Shown: positions 1 to 7,723 of the stretch, one piece after another | Layout: every line of letters begins with the position of its first letter | Numbering within the stretch: position 1 is the stretch's first letter | Assembly (NCBI GenBank): GCA_963662655.2 | Contig: CAXXTU010000002.1 | Coordinates: 1-64,000 of the forward strand | DNA length: 64,000 nt | Direction of reading: 5' to 3' | From: Candidatus Cloacimonadales bacterium | GTDB lineage: Bacteria > Cloacimonadota > Cloacimonadia > Cloacimonadales > JAIOQZ01 | Notes under the pieces: generated by a model | Databases searched by the model: none | Told to the model about the DNA's origin: nothing | The model's input: the letters and a program-made list of their open reading frames with translations, nothing else | Translations under genes and position numbers: made by a program

Positions 1-1
1 G

Positions 2-411
2 CAGACCGCGAAAGGCAACAACAAGTCGCACACGACCGTCCTCATCGAGACCGAGAACAAGGACGCTCGTATCCGACTCGAACCGCTCCGCCAGCAAGAT
101 CGCGACGGCGGCTTTATCACCCTCAAGAAAGACCTGCGCGAGGGCATTTTCGCATACCACAGAGTCCCCGCGAGGATCGTTTCGCAGCTCATCCCGGGGC
201 AGCTCGGGGGCGACAACCGCTCCGACATGCTGATGTTCCACCATTTCGTGATCAAGCCGCTCCAGCACCGGCTCGGGCAAGTGTTGAGCAGCGCGTTCAA
301 CGCCGAGTTTGACTGGAAGCTCACCCCGCCGACTTCGACTTCGGCGACCTGACTTCGATCTTCGAGAGCGAGGACGAGAAACTATTCAATTCCAATAGAT
401 TAGGAGGCTGA
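2..411 (+). pseudogene. Phage portal protein C-terminus (PBSX/XkdE-like), 5'-partial, apparent 1-nt frameshift at ~324-327
   Basis: Frame 2 reads ...FITLKKDLREGIFAYHRVPARIV...VIKPLQHRL..., with a portal-like HRVP motif, and stops at 352. Frame 1 from 328 continues ADFDFGDLTSIFESEDEKLF... in phage codon style to TGA 409-411, abutting the next ATG. Confidence 0.7.
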
Positions 412-2148
412 ATGCAAGAACGTAAAACCGTGCGCAAGGGCGAGTTGCGCAACGTCGAGGTGGAGCTCGTTTCGCTGCTGTTCGACGACATGAACCCCGC
501 CAACCAGAAGGGCTTCGTGGTGAAGTCCGCCACCGGCAAGAGCTACAAGGTGCGCGGCTCGTCCGTGAAGTTCAAAAGCGAGACCAAGGGGCGTCAGGGG
601 CGACTGTTCGTGACCCTCATGGAGCCGGACGTGAAGGACGCGCAGGGCGATTTCTACACCGCCGAGGAGATCCAGAAGGCCTGCGACCACTTCAGCAAGC
701 ACGGCATGGTCGGACGCAACGACATCAACCACAACAACCACCCGATCGACGACTTCTCGGTCGCCGAGAACTACATCCTGAAGACCGAGGATCGCACGCA
801 TTTCCCCGATACGAGAGTGGGAGCTTGGGTGCAGGTCTTGAAGTGCGACGACCTCGATTCCGCGCTGTGGAAGAAGGTCGAGAAGGGCGACTTCAACGGC
901 GTCTCGATCTACGGCCGCGCGGACGACTACAACAACACCAACGAGACCTTGAAGGCCATCCGCGACGAGATTGCGGGGCTGCGCGACCTGCAGAAGTCGC
1001 TGAAGGACGCCGACCGTGAAGCGGAACTCGAGTCCGCGATTGACGAGCTTGAGAGCAAGGTTTCGAGGCTGGAGAGCGGCATCGACGACGGCGGTCTGCG
1101 CGAAGCCGTGAAGTCCATCGAGAAGAGCCTCGACAGCCTCTCGACCACGATGAGCCGCGCCATTTCGAAGAGCATTCAGGGCGAGCCTGACACCGATGGC
1201 GGCGACCGCGAGGTGATCGTCAACGGCGAGAAGGTGCTTGTGAAGGCGTCGCACCGCGAGATCTACAAGGGTATCGCGGACGTCGACTCCGGCAAGGCGA
1301 TGAGCATCCTGACGCCCAACAACACGAGCCTGTTCATCGACGAGGTGATCGGTTCCAAGCCGGGCGACACACTGACCGACATCTCGGTCATCCCGCTGCT
1401 CAAGGACGAGAAAATCGACGTCGGCCTCATCGAAGACCTGATCTTCCACAACTCGCTCGACGGTACGCTCTCCGCGCAGGACGTAGCCACCGCCGACCTG
1501 TCCTGCCCCACCGGCATCCTGATGGCCGAGTTCACGTTGGGCCGCGACGTCGTCGAGTTCTACAAGGACAAGTACGGTGAGGACGCCTTCGGAGCCTACG
1601 TTGAGCAGCACATCGCGCGCAAGACCGAGAAGGCGATGAGGCTACTGCTGTTCCGGGGTGACAGGGCATCGGCGACGGCTAAGCTGAAAGCTCTCAACGG
1701 TCTCGTGAAGCTGGCGACCGATGGAGCCGACATCACGGCCATCAGTCCCACAACCTACGACGAGTGGACCGACCGCTTCGAGCAGGTTCTACTCGGCTTC
1801 ACCGACGAGATGCTGGAGGAGCAGGAGAGCTTCCGTATCTACGTGAGCCACAAGGATCTGATTCGCATCCGCACGGAGCTTGGCCAGCGCGAGACGAACA
1901 AGGGCGACAAGCTGCTCCTCGAGGGCGGCAAGGTCAGCTTCAGCGGCATCCCGGTCAAGGCGCGGCTCCTGCCCGACAACTACATCGTCTGCGGCCTGAC
2001 CAAGTTCATCATCATCGGCTATCGCACCGACGCCGAACTCAAGGTGGAGCACCACGGCGCGGACTGGAAGTACCACTGGTACATCCGCATCCGGCCCGGC
2101 ATCACCTACGTTCCGGGCTTCGTCAAATTCTACCAGCTCACCGACTAA
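412..2148 (+). CDS. XkdF-like prohead protease + coiled-coil scaffold + major capsid protein fusion
   Basis: N-terminus VSLL..PANQKGF, EPDVKDAQGD, W..V.KGDFNGVSIYG resembles XkdF-like protease. Central acidic coiled coil; C-terminal ~300 aa capsid-like. Follows the portal; RBS AGGAGG at 402-407. Confidence 0.85.
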   Translation: MQERKTVRKGELRNVEVELVSLLFDDMNPANQKGFVVKSATGKSYKVRGSSVKFKSETKGRQGRLFVTLMEPDVKDAQGDFYTAEEIQKACDHFSKHGMVGRNDINHNNHPIDDFSVAENYILKTEDRTHFPDTRVGAWVQVLKCDDLDSALWKKVEKGDFNGVSIYGRADDYNNTNETLKAIRDEIAGLRDLQKSLKDADREAELESAIDELESKVSRLESGIDDGGLREAVKSIEKSLDSLSTTMSRAISKSIQGEPDTDGGDREVIVNGEKVLVKASHREIYKGIADVDSGKAMSILTPNNTSLFIDEVIGSKPGDTLTDISVIPLLKDEKIDVGLIEDLIFHNSLDGTLSAQDVATADLSCPTGILMAEFTLGRDVVEFYKDKYGEDAFGAYVEQHIARKTEKAMRLLLFRGDRASATAKLKALNGLVKLATDGADITAISPTTYDEWTDRFEQVLLGFTDEMLEEQESFRIYVSHKDLIRIRTELGQRETNKGDKLLLEGGKVSFSGIPVKARLLPDNYIVCGLTKFIIIGYRTDAELKVEHHGADWKYHWYIRIRPGITYVPGFVKFYQLTD

Positions 2149-2156
2149 CCAAAATC

Positions 2157-2247
2157 AATGATGAATGAGGAATGAGCAATTAGAAATGAAGGCACAGACG
2201 CGACCAAACCGCCAGTTGTCATCATTCATAATTCCTAATTCATAATT
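2157..2247. repeat. Inverted arrays of AT-rich heptamer repeats (5 + 4 units)
   Basis: AATGATG AATGAGG AATGAGC AATTAGA AATGAAG (2157-2191) and CATCATT CATAATT CCTAATT CATAATT (2220-2247). Confidence 0.8.
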
Positions 2248-2268
2248 AACGACTGAAAGGAGTTACGT

Positions 2269-2469
2269 ATGTGGAAGTGGATACTCAAACAGGCGATCAA
2301 GGCTCTCGCAGAGCCGATTGTGGACGCCGTCATCAGCGCGCTCGAAGCCCTCGCGAAGCGTAGCGAGAACACCATCGACGACGCCTTCGTGGCGAAGTTC
2401 CGCGAGTTCAAGGAGGCCATCGTCGGCTTCATCCTCGCGCACTGCGACAACATCGTGAAAAGCGCGTAG
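2269..2469 (+). CDS. Small phage protein (66 aa), function unknown
   Basis: Strong RBS AAGGAG, phage codon usage, amphipathic helical sequence. Confidence 0.8.
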   Translation: MWKWILKQAIKALAEPIVDAVISALEALAKRSENTIDDAFVAKFREFKEAIVGFILAHCDNIVKSA

Positions 2470-2478
2470 GGAGCGGCC

Positions 2479-3024
2479 ATGCCCGTAGAAAAACCCACCC
2501 TACCCACCGGCATGAGCTCCGGTGACCTCGCGAACCTGCTCAACCAGATCGGCGGCGTGGACGTGTACAACGTCCACGTCGGGGTCGGCGAGCTGACGGA
2601 GAGCGAAATCTCCGCGATGTTCGCCGCACAGGATGCCATGCAGACCGAGCTGGATTCGAACTTCGAGGAACTCGGCGAACTGGCCGAGAAGCCGTTCAAG
2701 GTCGAATCCAAGACCGAGAAGCTCAAGACCCGGCACTACCAGATCGAGGGCAAGCGCACGAACGTGGTGACCGTCACCATCGTGGGCATCAACGAGGACA
2801 AGAAGAACTGGCTCGAAGAGCAGAGCGCAGGCATGGCGCAGATCACGCTCGTGGCTGTGTCCAAGGACAAGACGCAGGCGGTGCTCATCAACGGCTGCCG
2901 CTGGACGGTCGACTGGAGCGGTGAAGCTGACGGCCTGTACACGCAGGAAGTCACCACCGAGTTCACCGGCAAGACGAGCGGTCGTATCGGATTCTACAAC
3001 AAGATACCGGCCACGGTCGAATAG
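2479..3024 (+). CDS. Probable major tail (tube) protein
   Basis: 181 aa, beta-rich. Lies between the capsid and tail chaperone genes; RBS GGAG. Function inferred from synteny. Confidence 0.55.
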   Translation: MPVEKPTLPTGMSSGDLANLLNQIGGVDVYNVHVGVGELTESEISAMFAAQDAMQTELDSNFEELGELAEKPFKVESKTEKLKTRHYQIEGKRTNVVTVTIVGINEDKKNWLEEQSAGMAQITLVAVSKDKTQAVLINGCRWTVDWSGEADGLYTQEVTTEFTGKTSGRIGFYNKIPATVE

Positions 3025-3032
3025 GAGAGAAC

Positions 3033-3233
3033 ATGGACTGCAGATGCGATCCTGAAATTCGCAAGAAGATATCGGACGTGCACAAGGAGGTCTACGGCAA
3101 CGGCGATTCGAGCCGGTCAATGGTCACCCGTATTGCGCGACTGGAAACCAACATCAAGCTGCTCACCAGCCTGACCGTCAGCCAGTTCTTTCTGCTCGTC
3201 GGCGTCGCCGTGAAGACCTTTCTGGGGGCGTGA
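3033..3233 (+). CDS. Small membrane protein (coiled coil + C-terminal TM; holin/XhlA-like)
   Basis: YGNG..S..TRIARLE followed by hydrophobic LLTSLTVSQFFLLVGVAV; RBS AGGAG. Confidence 0.6.
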   Translation: MDCRCDPEIRKKISDVHKEVYGNGDSSRSMVTRIARLETNIKLLTSLTVSQFFLLVGVAVKTFLGA

Positions 3234-3556
3234 TGGACATCAGTTACGCGACCTTTCGCAAGGTGCTATCGACGCTTCTGAGGAACGAAAACCTGCGCGA
3301 CGGACTCACCGACCTGCTCGCCGGTAACGAGCTGGAACTGAGCGAGGTCAGCTTCCTGGACTTGCTCGAAGCCTCGAACGTCGACATCGACATCCTGCGC
3401 ATCCTCACCGGACGCGAGCCTGAGGACACTTCTCCCCAGCAGGCGGCGGAGGTGTTCACGGCTTTTTTCTCGGCTGTCAGAGGCAGTTGGCGCGCGTTTC
3501 AGCCCTTGCTCGACGCTTTGGGCTACACGGCGCAAGTGCAAGCGGGGACAGCATAG
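3230..3556 (+). CDS. Probable tail assembly chaperone (gpG-like) with -1 frameshift site
   Basis: 108-aa acidic helical protein downstream of the tail tube; in-frame T TTT TTC heptamer at 3463-3469. Confidence 0.6.
   Translation: MMDISYATFRKVLSTLLRNENLRDGLTDLLAGNELELSEVSFLDLLEASNVDIDILRILTGREPEDTSPQQAAEVFTAFFSAVRGSWRAFQPLLDALGYTAQVQAGTA
3463..3469 (+). other. Candidate programmed -1 ribosomal frameshift site (T TTT TTC)
   Basis: X XXY YYZ pattern in the reading frame of 3230..3556; the -1 frame is open from 3424 to 4434. Confidence 0.6.
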
Positions 3557-3672
3557 AACGTATCGAGATGGCCCTGCGCGGGGCGGGGTTCACACAGGCC
3601 GACTTCATCGAGCTGAGCCTGTCCGAACTCTACCTCCGCTACTGCCTCGCCATCGAAACAACAAGAAACACA

Positions 3673-4434
3673 ATGGATAGTCTCATCACATGGATCGGCG
3701 GCAAGAAGCTGCTGCGCAAGAAAATCGCCAGCCTCGTCCCTGACGACATCACCGGCTATGTGGAGCCGTTCGGCGGCGCGGGTTGGGTGCTCTTCCACCG
3801 CGACCGCTGGGCCCGTCTCGAGGTATACAACGACCTCGATTCGCGTCTCACAAACCTCTTTCTGCAGGTGAAGTTCCATCCCGATGCACTCGTGAAGGAG
3901 CTCGAGCTGATGCCAGCCTCCCGAGCATTGTTTGACGAACTGGTCGACCAGCCCGGTCTGACAGAGCTGCAACGCGCCGCGCGATTCCTCTACATCATCA
4001 CCCGTTCGTTCGGCGGCAAGGGCGAGCACTTCGGCAGGGCATCCACGTCCGGCCCCAGCAGCATGCAGCGCAAGCTGGAGCGCGTTCACGACCTCAGCAA
4101 GCGGCTCGACAAGGTGACCATCGAACACTTACCCTACGAAGAGCTGATCGCTTTCTACGACCGGCCCGGCGTCTTCTTCTACTGCGACCCGCCATACGTG
4201 CACGGCACCACCTACGCCAACGCGCGCCACTTCGATCACGAGCGGCTTCGGGACGTACTCAAAGGCGTGAAAGGCCGCTGGCTGCTTAGTTACGACGACT
4301 GCCCCGAAGTGCACGAGCTGTACGCCGGTCACACGATCATCCCGGTCAGCCGCGTAAAGGGCATCAACCGCATGCAGGGAGAGAGCATGTTCAAGGAGGT
4401 GATCATCGCAAACTATGAGGTGCCAAATGAATAG
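3673..4434 (+). CDS. DNA N6-adenine methyltransferase (Dam/D12 class, alpha-type motif order)
   Basis: WIGGK, VEPFGGAGWV (SAM-binding), YND, CDPPY, WLLSYDD, EVIIANY. The frame is open upstream without a stop into the chaperone -1 frame. Confidence 0.93.
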   Translation: MDSLITWIGGKKLLRKKIASLVPDDITGYVEPFGGAGWVLFHRDRWARLEVYNDLDSRLTNLFLQVKFHPDALVKELELMPASRALFDELVDQPGLTELQRAARFLYIITRSFGGKGEHFGRASTSGPSSMQRKLERVHDLSKRLDKVTIEHLPYEELIAFYDRPGVFFYCDPPYVHGTTYANARHFDHERLRDVLKGVKGRWLLSYDDCPEVHELYAGHTIIPVSRVKGINRMQGESMFKEVIIANYEVPNE

Positions 4435-4531
4435 CGTTATCGGCTGGGTGGGCGGCAAGCGGCTGTTGCGCAAGGATACTTCCGAGTGCGTTCCACAAGG
4501 ATTCAATCAAACTTCGAGTCTGAAACCTTGA
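4427..4531 (+). pseudogene. Truncated second Dam-family methyltransferase (N-terminal ~27 codons)
   Basis: MNSVIGWVGGKRLLRKDTSECVPQGF aligns without gaps to MDSLITWIGGKKLLRKKIASLVPDDI. The ATG overlaps the end of the previous gene (RBS GAGGTG); the gene breaks at the AT-rich insert. Confidence 0.85.
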
Positions 4532-4556
4532 ATGCAAAGCAATATTGTAATTATAC

Positions 4557-4585
4557 TTGACTTCGTGCAAGGACGGTATTAGACT
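4557..4585 (+). promoter_or_regulatory. sigma70-like promoter of the cargo gene
   Basis: TTGACT-17 bp-TAGACT. Confidence 0.55.
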
Positions 4586-4782
4586 ATCTTATAGGTAAGT
4601 GTGTTTGTTTCTAAAAATAACTGTGAGATGGATTGCGCCAAAAGAATCACCTCTGTAGATTGCCACAAAACGTTAAACCTAACAAAATGAGCATGAAGCT
4701 GGTATAACCCGAATTAATGCGACTAATTGATGTCCCGAAGCAATACTTGTGTAGGTTATCCTAAACTTAAAGGTCGATACCT

Positions 4783-6294
4783 ATGAAGGTCTTATTGATA
4801 TACCCATTTTGTCCAGACTCGTTCTGGAGTTTTCGTTACGCATTGCATTTCATTTTGAAAAAGGCAAGTGATCCCCCACTTGGTCTCTTAACTGTGGCAG
4901 CCATGCTTCCTAGGGATTGGCAGATCGAAGTGATCGACATGAATGTGTCTAAATTACAGAAGCAGGATATTCTTCGGGCCGATTTGGTCTTTGTAAGCGC
5001 AATGTCAATCCAGAGAAAATCAGTATTGAAAGTGATCGATCAATGCCATAATCTTGGACGAAAGGTTGTGGCAGGCGGACCGCTGTTCACATCACAGCCG
5101 GATGCATTCCCGATGGTCGATTATTTGCTTCTTGGCGAGGCGGAAGTCATTTTACCGGAATTTCTTGTCGATCTTTCCAGCGGGAATCCTAAGAAAATCT
5201 ATAGAGCCACAACATGGGCCGATATTACGACGACTCCGCTACCTCGTTGGGATTTGATCGATTTCAGAAAGTACGCTTCAATTGACATTCAGTATTCGAG
5301 GGGATGTCCGTTCCATTGCAGTTTTTGCGATATTTCCGTTTTATTCGGAAATGTGCCAAGAACGAAGACTCGCGAGCAAATTCTGGCTGAAATGACTTCA
5401 CTGTATTCCCATGGGTGGCGCGGTGCAGTTTTTTTGGTGGATGACAATTTTATTGGCAATATCAAGAAGTTGAAAAGTGATATTCTTCCTGGTATTATTT
5501 CCTGGATGCAGGAACATCGCTATCCATTTTCCCTCTATACCGAATGCTCGATCAATATGGCAGACGATGAACCATTGATGCAGATGATGGCGGCTGCCGG
5601 GTTTGACACGGTCTTCATAGGGATTGAAACGGTGGACGAAAACAGCCTCGTCGAATGTGGAAAGGTCGCCAATTGCCGGAGAGATATTATTGCTTCCGTG
5701 CGAAAGATCCAGACCTTCGGGTTTGAGGTCATGGGAGGATTTATCATCGGTTTCGACAATGATAAACCTACAGTATTCGATAAAATGTTTGAATTCATTC
5801 AGGATAGCGGTATCGTTACCGCCATGGTTGGCTTACTCAATGCTCCGGTCAACACCACCCTATATAAACGCATGGACGAGGAAGGAAGACTAATCGGAAA
5901 AATGACCGGCGATAACACTGATATATCGATGAATTTTATTCCAGCGATGAGAATAGAAACTCTTATCTCCGGTTACAAGCGTTTAATGAATAAATTATAC
6001 TCTCCAAAGGTCTTTTACGATAGAGTGAGAACCTTTCTATCAATCGATAAGCGAAAGCCCCTTCATGAATCGGTCCATTTCTACGAAGTCATCGCGTTGT
6101 TGAAAACATTTATAATTTTAGGTGTTATTGGCAAAGAACGGTCCCAGTACTGGAAGCTTCTCTTCTGGAGTATTTTTCGAAAACCACATTCGTTCCGTAA
6201 GGTTATCACTTATGCTATCTACGGTTACCATTTTCGTAAGATGATGCAACAGTATTCTCAAAATGGAACACCACCAACTACTGCCTCTTCTTGA
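4783..6294 (+). CDS. B12-binding radical SAM protein (DUF4070/HpnP-like family)
   Basis: PPLGLLTVAAMLP cobalamin-binding N-terminus, SRGCPFHCSFC (CxxxCxxC), VDDNFIG, VFIGIET, GGFIIGFDND. Confidence 0.92.
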   Translation: MKVLLIYPFCPDSFWSFRYALHFILKKASDPPLGLLTVAAMLPRDWQIEVIDMNVSKLQKQDILRADLVFVSAMSIQRKSVLKVIDQCHNLGRKVVAGGPLFTSQPDAFPMVDYLLLGEAEVILPEFLVDLSSGNPKKIYRATTWADITTTPLPRWDLIDFRKYASIDIQYSRGCPFHCSFCDISVLFGNVPRTKTREQILAEMTSLYSHGWRGAVFLVDDNFIGNIKKLKSDILPGIISWMQEHRYPFSLYTECSINMADDEPLMQMMAAAGFDTVFIGIETVDENSLVECGKVANCRRDIIASVRKIQTFGFEVMGGFIIGFDNDKPTVFDKMFEFIQDSGIVTAMVGLLNAPVNTTLYKRMDEEGRLIGKMTGDNTDISMNFIPAMRIETLISGYKRLMNKLYSPKVFYDRVRTFLSIDKRKPLHESVHFYEVIALLKTFIILGVIGKERSQYWKLLFWSIFRKPHSFRKVITYAIYGYHFRKMMQQYSQNGTPPTTASS

Positions 6295-6394
6295 ACTCTT
6301 TTTTATTACGAGAAACACAAAGTTATCAATAGTTAAATGCATTCTCCAAATCAGCCCCAAGAACCTCCTCTTCTGTATCAGCATCTTTGTGTAG

Positions 6395-7723
6395 ATGATA
6401 CGGCAGACTTCGAGTTCTCTCGGGGTCGAGTTCGAGTGCTTCCGCAACGACTGGATCGAGCAGAACATTCTGTCCGGTGAGCACGAGTACGACCGCTATA
6501 TTTCACACTACTTCGTGCGGCTCTACGAAGACTCCACGCTGGTGTTCCACGGCATCGTCGACACCTCTTTCGTGAGCCACGACGCCAAGACCGACGTGGT
6601 CTCGTTCACCTGCTACGACTACCTGCGGCTGTTCGCCAAGTTCGACGACCAGACCATGCTCTACGCCCTCCACAGCGGCTACTCCGCCGACTACTGCTTC
6701 CGTTATCTGGCGCAGGGCATTGAGGTCGCACTGGGTAATGAGATCACCATCCCCTGCTCGTGGTACGGCTACACGCCGCTTCAGATCGCGGTGACCGACC
6801 TGCCAATCCTGCAACTCGACTGGCTGCGCATGGTGCGGAAGTTTCGCCAGTGGAACGGCCAACTCGCCTGCTACTGCGGCTTTCGCTACGCTCCCATGTT
6901 CAGCGGCGACTACGTCCCCGAGTTCCGGCTGCTCTTCTACTGCGAACACGTCCACGAGGGCAACATCCAGTGCAAGGTCTATGCGCGCAAGTTCCGCTTC
7001 TACAACGCAATCTGCTGGATTGAGGACGACGCCGCCGAGATCGACGATAAGTCCGATGTTTACAGCACGACGCAGTACGACGAGATGCTCGCGTGGCGCG
7101 ATGAATTGTGCGCAGAGTACGTGCCGTTCGAGCCGTGGGCTTCCGCGCGAACGTTCCACCACAGCGGCAACACCTATAGTATAGGAATAGAGAACGCCGA
7201 CCTCGACGACGCCACTGCACCGGAGTACAAGTACGTAACTTACACCGGCAACGCCGTGCCTGCGAACCTCTATCCGAAGGGCTTCTACGAGGGCGAGAAC
7301 GAGACGCTGGAGAAGCTCAAAGCTCTAAAAGCCGCGCTACTGCTGCACAATCTGACTATCGTCTCGTTGCCCGGCGGCACGTTGAAGCTGGTCAACAAGG
7401 TCGACGCTTCGAACACGGTCACCACCATCGACTCGGCAGACATCATCGAGTTCAAGCGGAAGCGGCTTAACCGCTCCCGGCCCGACACCTCCGTCCTGGA
7501 CTGTCTCGTCGGCGACACGATCAACCTGAAGCAGCTCATCGCGGACTACTACGAGACCCTCTTCTGCCAGACGTGGAGCCTCGAAGTAACCGTCGACAAC
7601 CTCGCTAAATACGACCTGTCGCTGTTCGACAAGCTCTTGATCGAGGGCGTGCAATACCGCATCACCGAGCTGCAGCGCGACCCGAAAGCTGACGAGTACA
7701 AGATCAAGGCGTGGGAGGTCTGA
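6395..7723 (+). CDS. Phage tail (hub/baseplate-region) protein, probably 5'-truncated
   Basis: Phage codon usage resumes at ~6420; the ATG lies inside the insert with no clear RBS; couples to the next gene via TGATG. Confidence 0.65.
   Translation: MIRQTSSSLGVEFECFRNDWIEQNILSGEHEYDRYISHYFVRLYEDSTLVFHGIVDTSFVSHDAKTDVVSFTCYDYLRLFAKFDDQTMLYALHSGYSADYCFRYLAQGIEVALGNEITIPCSWYGYTPLQIAVTDLPILQLDWLRMVRKFRQWNGQLACYCGFRYAPMFSGDYVPEFRLLFYCEHVHEGNIQCKVYARKFRFYNAICWIEDDAAEIDDKSDVYSTTQYDEMLAWRDELCAEYVPFEPWASARTFHHSGNTYSIGIENADLDDATAPEYKYVTYTGNAVPANLYPKGFYEGENETLEKLKALKAALLLHNLTIVSLPGGTLKLVNKVDASNTVTTIDSADIIEFKRKRLNRSRPDTSVLDCLVGDTINLKQLIADYYETLFCQTWSLEVTVDNLAKYDLSLFDKLLIEGVQYRITELQRDPKADEYKIKAWEV

Follow-up and report, generated by a model that had tools for sequence, protein, structure and literature searches.

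A 64,000-nt stretch of DNA (here called the window), with which contig C2 of a 3.8-Mb Candidatus Cloacimonadales genome of two contigs (C1 and C2) begins, raises the question of whether a putative phage tail chaperone can be fused by a -1 ribosomal frameshift to a DNA adenine methyltransferase (MTase). A preliminary description of this DNA had proposed such a product, of about 400 aa, as a means of coupling genome methylation to tail assembly. As described below, the locus probably holds a lambda-type gpG/gpGT gene followed by a separate Dam-class MTase gene, and the apparent fusion reflects one base missing from this copy alone, likely through an error of assembly.

Contig C2 carries the phage late module five times, as copy A in the window and as copies B, C, D and E. 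Compared with copy A, copy B is 99% similar, copies C and D are about 88 to 91% similar, and copy E is distant. Mu-type transposase genes precede copies of the module, which accounts for the presence of several copies in one genome. Upstream of copy B are genes matching phrog_310, phrog_296 and phrog_4 (Mu-type transposase, B-type ATPase and repressor) together with a phrog_38 terminase, and upstream of copy C are phrog_310 (Mu-type transposase set) and, again, a phrog_38 terminase. Copy A probably straddles the assembly gap, with its early module on C1 and its late genes on C2. A GTA-like module devoid of a terminase was considered and rejected: PF03237 matched just one other locus, but phrog_38 terminases lie 8 to 10 kb upstream of copies B, C, D and E. 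Large cargo blocks, some of them restriction-modification-like, were seen between the terminase and the late genes. The copies of the late module and the early module on C1 are located as follows.

C2, 1-10k (window, copy A), 3.29-3.32M, 2.73-2.76M, 0.475-0.51M and 0.345-0.366M: late-module copies.
C1:11.4-21k, at the start of C1: Mu-like early module without structural genes, matching the type of the window copy.

In the window, the end of a portal gene and a protease-capsid gene precede the 181-aa open reading frame with which the region of interest begins. This 181-aa frame matched no Pfam or PHROG family. The features of the region are the following.

2479..3024, + strand: likely major tail protein, 181 aa, named from position and size alone; conserved in all five C2 copies.
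3230..3556, + strand: gpG-like predicted tail assembly chaperone (G), 108 aa, starting at GTG 3230 or ATG 3233; called from its open reading frame, position and frameshift signal.
3448..3453, + strand: internal Shine-Dalgarno (SD)-like GGAGGT, 9 to 10 nt 5' of the heptamer; predicted stimulator of -1 frameshifting.
3463..3469, + strand: slippery heptamer T TTT TTC, within GCT TTT TTC (3461-3469) in the G frame.
3466..3680, + strand: T segment in the -1 frame; 71 codons in copy B, where the predicted gpGT has 150 aa and ends at the TAG equivalent to window 3678-3680.
3673..4434, + strand: D12-class (Dam/DpnM-like) N6-adenine DNA MTase, 253 aa, with a DPPY motif; encoded as a gene of its own in every homologous locus that was scored.
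4427..4475, + strand: remaining 5' end of another D12 MTase gene, in tandem with the first; the protein has 258 to 291 aa in the other copies.

The heptamer lies in the chaperone frame exactly where the preliminary description had placed it. Of the 1,110,891 codon positions in the long open reading frames of this genome, 184 have an in-frame T TTT TTN, giving a P of about 0.018 per 108-codon gene. The conservation of the heptamer had been proposed as a check, and for this purpose an alignment of 26 G-like proteins was searched against 232 genomes of the phylum, resulting in 54 places in 32 genomes. We scored 53 of these places plus the IMG/VR contig L001, leaving out a weak 33-residue match in genome G087; one of the resulting 54 loci is truncated before the site and another contains Ns, so that 52 were scorable. 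These loci are related, and the counts given here overstate their independence. Scans of metagenomes yielded no further locus, and a pattern scan of viral sequences yielded none beyond one viral contig.

A slippery heptamer was found at the same position in all 52 scorable loci, as TTTTTTC in 36, TTTTTTT in 12 and AAATTTT in 4, and the FF that the site encodes is invariant in the 26 aligned G-like proteins. An SD-like word is present 6 to 17 nt upstream of the heptamer in 39 of 46 loci. At this SD-like site the glutamate codons GAG and GAA are used 40:3, compared with 149:184 elsewhere in the same genes. The spacing of 9 to 10 nt in the window falls within the 9 to 14 nt given for SD stimulators of -1 frameshifting in PMC5009743. 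A conserved 3' RNA stimulator was also considered and discarded as unsupported, given a mean z score of -0.73 with only 6 of 46 loci below -2 and the lack of a consensus structure; this negative result counts against the frameshift reading.

The -1 frame downstream of the heptamer is likewise conserved. Among 26 diverse loci picked by hand, a stop codon occurs within 65 codons 3' of the heptamer in frame 0 in 26 of 26 and in frame +1 in 25 of 26, and in none of them in frame -1. The T segment then stops after 66 to 91 codons in 51 of the 52 scorable loci, the window being the sole run-on. With the heptamer about 30 to 39 codons before the G stop, approximately 90 to 120 nt would be coded in two frames. 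A 60-nt insertion in copies C and D and in two relatives preserves the T frame. A crude T motif pattern matched 44 of the 52 loci, and on visual inspection the T segment differs from the others in just one locus, the weak hit L077. Together, the heptamer in 52 of 52 loci and the conserved T segment make a predicted -1 frameshift signal of the gpG/gpGT type well supported, in agreement with the earlier proposal.

By contrast with its frameshift signal, the G protein itself matched no family in Pfam or PHROGs. Its structure model is all helical, and searches of the fold and of the Atlas yielded no meaningful match (Atlas best, 0.82; Foldseek viral best, E of 0.39; VIA best, Z of 5.0), which show neither novelty nor a different fold. 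Since family, Atlas and fold matches are all lacking, the chaperone label is drawn from the position of the gene and its signal.

The gene that follows T was identified as an MTase in 30 of the 52 loci and as a tape measure gene in 15, and 7 were left uncalled. All 15 of these tape measure proteins match PHROG-confirmed ones; the tape measure gene is PHROG confirmed in copies D and E and in L001, and in D and L001 it lies 3' of the MTases. The loci with an MTase next come from 17 genomes and one viral contig. That the gene after T in the window encodes a Dam-type MTase was borne out at the level of domain and motif, since the predicted protein matches PF02086 at 86 bits (cutoff, 22) and contains DPPY. 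It is also similar to DpnM (E of 2e-15) and gives full-length matches to solved D12 members. Relatives occur in 395 phage records, with an identity to any phage record below 60% and about 40% at best. In copies A to D and in L001, tandem D12 MTases that are about 37 to 40% identical to each other were observed between T and the tape measure gene, and copy E has a single MTase, located upstream of G. These MTase genes were compared over window 3673-4475, L001:8445-9975 and L005:10948-11910.

As the preliminary description had stated, the -1 frame in the window has no stop until 4434, and the MTase ATG at 3673 has no evident SD. No GGAG, GAGG or AGGA precedes this ATG, and the -1 frame is already open ahead of the heptamer. 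The frame reads ...IEMALRGAGFTQADFIELSLSELYLRY-CLAIETTRNT-MDSLITWIGGK..., and a tandem slip would yield a 401-aa product. Comparison with the sister copies traces both the open junction and the missing SD to the absence, in copy A only, of one G after position 3664. Copies B, C and D and L001 all have this G, the T stop and AAGGA before the MTase ATG, and with the G present T ends in ...ETTRK(H/S)NG at a TAG that overlaps the MTase start (ATGGATAG). Copy B (C2:3312330-3316806) differs from window 1-4049 at just two places, each of them a run from which the window has lost a single base.

3664..3665, + strand: loss of one base (G), private to copy A, which removes the MTase SD and brings T in frame with the MTase.
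320..326, + strand: second private one-base loss, in which a C run at the end of the portal gene goes from 5 to 4; an internal control for consensus error.

On the preferred reading, of a gpG/gpGT gene followed by a separate MTase gene, gpG of 108 aa would be the main translation product. Slippage by -1 on U UUU UUC in a minority of ribosomes, probably helped by the internal SD 9 to 10 nt upstream, would give a gpGT of about 150 aa that ends at the TAG with which the MTase start overlaps. Translation of the MTase, as a gene of the late operon, would use a separate AAGGA SD and the ATG at 3673, and the enzyme would probably methylate progeny DNA against restriction.

The missing G is, in our judgment, likely to be an assembly error. 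We compared the two alleles in the assembled contigs of public runs, in which rare variants are dropped. In run X1, pieces specific to copy A occur with 0 differences (4020-5100, 5101-5435 and 5429-7000), and the same run has the C at 323 with a depth of 14 of 14; the loss near 323 is thus probably a consensus error. In a zoomed check over position 3664, all of the depth in runs X1, X5 and X3 carries the G, and no G-less contig was seen in these three runs. Record 12 of X5 crosses the site, is of the A/B type and has 0 other letters and 1 gap (the added G). The window begins C2 within a repeat that it shares with copy B, and run-length errors that survive in repeats are described as a known trait of long-read assemblies (PMC8812927). 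The interior copies C and D have identical tracts of 2,632 and 3,389 nt without an indel.

Alternatively, the G could have been lost through a true mutation that is private to copy A as a dead prophage. The MTase ribosome-binding site (RBS) would then be gone, and read-through would by accident give a GT-MTase product of 401 aa for which no role had been selected. We consider this possible, though less likely. In its favor, contigs with 0 differences confirm that the tape measure gene and most of the second MTase are gone from copy A, so that selection on the tail operon would be relaxed, and other copies are decayed too. In addition, X1 has only a contig of the C/D type over 3653-3764, with no A/B-type piece listed, and X5 is thin on copy A-specific DNA (depth of 0 to 2), so that record 12 may represent copy B alone. 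In X2 and X4, moreover, the G accounts for part of the depth only (84.9 of 88.4 and 8.7 of 15, respectively). However, the only other difference between A and B in 4 kb is a one-base run loss of the same kind and is not found in the X1 contigs, and the site lies at the contig start inside a repeat where the zoomed check revealed no contig without the G.

A further possibility concerns the intact copies and is compatible with the preferred reading: translation of the separate MTase might be partly coupled to termination of gpGT, so that frameshifting limits late methylation. The arrangement of the genes invites this idea, as in each of the 30 loci the MTase start either overlaps the T stop or lies directly next to it (offset of -1 in 18, of -8 in 9 and other in 3). 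Against it, all 30 MTases have an SD word of their own, and most of the 15 canonical loci show a closely similar overlap or contact between the T stop and the tape measure gene, which points to ordinary gene packing; moreover, the MTase of copy E is upstream of G. The coupling is weakened by the SD of the MTase and by the similar overlaps of the tape measure gene, and we regard it as improbable. A more far-reaching version would have a Dam-class MTase that took the slot after gpT, its start overlapping the gpT stop (17 genomes, four families), with the frameshift setting the dose of late methylation by translational coupling and with the window allele as a real and recent read-through variant. 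Taken as a whole, this is distinctly improbable.

An independent start at 3568 had been offered as an alternative in the preliminary description. It is very unlikely that translation begins at ATG 3568 without any frameshift, with T either as a small gene in its own right or as an extension of the MTase at its N terminus. The methionine in 'LEM' is common in T, and the gene caller recorded a 288-aa T-MTase form for the contig of the window. This form is on record for one contig. It belongs to a cluster of 20 members, and among the 14 others that were listed, 12 have 253 aa and 2 are fragments. Conservation in the -1 frame begins at the heptamer, about 35 codons ahead of this methionine, and in L009 and L025 the frame opens exactly there. 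The methionine is also missing in several loci (for example, L010, L054 and L059), and distant loci exchange the heptamer for another valid one, A AAT TTT, yet keep T. Such a natural heptamer switch was observed in L059, L060 and L076 (genomes G206 and G207), distant homologs from another order, in which A AAT TTT has GGAGGAG upstream and the T segment is retained.

Finally, a selected gpGT-MTase fusion that tethers methylation to tail assembly, the model first put forward, has hardly any chance of being right: the frame is open in the window and the MTase directly follows T in 30 loci, which places a fusion one base away, but the fusion occurs in 1 of 52 scored loci with no second instance, the junction is open in none of the 30 other loci with an adjacent MTase, which come from 17 genomes plus a viral contig, and a 99%-identical sister copy lacks it. 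The homologs carry a T stop and an MTase RBS in 30 of 30 MTase-adjacent loci, including the three sister copies, and by this sequence comparison, which the preliminary description itself had named, the selected fusion is already refuted. The proposed coupling of methylation to tail assembly fares no better, because the sole fused copy has its tape measure gene deleted and hence has no tail to assemble; whether the missing base is an error or a mutation, such a fusion lacks its coupling target. In a search for MTase fusions of the T region against proteins of 173 to 552 aa, using cluster representatives, 3 candidates were returned and left unscored, and the form of the window was not among them; this search is weak and carries no weight here. 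Searches of the open-access literature by title or abstract start found no report of a chaperone-MTase fusion or of these prophages.

Copy A is truly decayed. A lost stop codon in a decaying prophage had been suggested as another explanation of the open frame, and this comes near to what is observed; the decay is confirmed, and the stop is not lost, as the TAG at 3678-3680 is present but shifted out of the T frame by the upstream one-base loss. The decay is seen in the following segment, defined by comparison with the intact copy D and by junctions in contigs of run X1.

4476..6422, + strand: foreign segment of 1.9 kb containing a B12-binding radical SAM gene (4783-6294).

This segment stands in place of about 4.0 kb of copy D, a region that holds most of the second MTase and the complete tape measure gene and reaches into the beginning of the following tail gene. 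Its left junction is crossed by one contig of X1 with 0 differences and its right junction by another. The radical SAM cassette was also found, at about 96% identity and sharing the left junction region, in runs X2 and X4 of another organism, indicating that the replacement is older than this genome. In three of the five copies the tape measure region is replaced or interrupted by cargo, namely by the radical SAM gene in A, by a 1,211-aa CARDB-domain protein on the opposite strand in B, and by a pair of secreted-looking proteins, of which one has a beta-helix match, in C.

The resident prophages also show a patchwork of identity. Copies A and B are identical up to 4049, apart from the two run losses, and then differ by 42 substitutions in 4050-4468, and between C and D the long identical tracts alternate with diverged blocks. 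This pattern suggests recombination or gene conversion. Other rearrangements were noted: the IMG/VR contig has a 662-aa portal-capsid frame from which the protease part is missing (L001:5035-7023), a decay product mimicking a fusion, and the capsid gene of copy D is split (L004:12059-13830), a decay product mimicking a split. A trio of another type, with small terminase, large terminase and portal (phrog_309, phrog_2 and phrog_533), is located at L026:9629-12681 (C2, about 1.7336-1.7367M); no capsid or tail frame was recognized by eye in the 20 kb inspected. An insertion sequence of 1.3 kb has about 8 near-identical copies on C2 and is found at the right ends of copy B (L002:16501-17776) and copy D (L004:1686-2980).

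Since the fusion depends on a single base of a single copy that lies at the edge of a contig, it is not worth pursuing, and the window illustrates that convincing fusions can arise from repeats located at contig ends. The modest but solid outcome is a predicted gpG/gpGT family of Mu-like prophages, which Pfam and PHROGs miss and which is present in 32 of the 232 phylum genomes searched. With its U-rich slip site, predicted internal SD stimulator, 30-to-39-codon overlap and heptamer switch, this family helps to annotate prophages of Cloacimonadota, and its loci can be used as a test set for frameshift predictors.

As for known systems, late DNA-modification genes are carried by Mu-like phages at the mom locus, including Mu mom and the adenine MTases Hin1523, Nma1821, Hia5 and B3 ORF48, as listed in PMC3299994. 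An adenine MTase among the late genes of a Mu-like prophage is common to those phages and to the prophages described here, and protection against restriction is plausible. Compared by location, the mom-type genes belong to the com-mom locus at the right end, whereas the MTase here directly follows T in the tail operon. The MTase shares its domain, the DPPY motif and full-length matches with other D12 enzymes (PF02086; DpnM, 2dpm; Escherichia coli Dam, 2g1p; phage Dam-like phrog_56) and differs from them in its identity of less than 60% to phage records and in its tandem arrangement within a tail operon.

The 'G-T' -1 frameshift is described as widely conserved in tail chaperones (PMC5009743), and the G-T frameshift chaperones treated in PMC10885494 serve as the comparison class. 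By position, heptamer and T frame, we file the locus with the lambda-type G-T frameshift chaperones. Like lambda gpG/gpGT, it would consist of a small open reading frame with an XXX YYY Z heptamer and a -1 T extension that ends before the next gene, and it is positioned alike, between the likely major tail gene (assigned by position) and the tape measure gene, directly upstream of the latter in 15 loci. Unlike in lambda, slippage would take place on T TTT TTY or A AAT TTT, the heptamer precedes the G stop by about 30 to 39 codons with about 90 to 120 nt dual coded, and sequence and fold show no detectable match to named chaperone families. As a further difference from lambda, 30 loci have one or two MTase genes that separate T from the tape measure gene.
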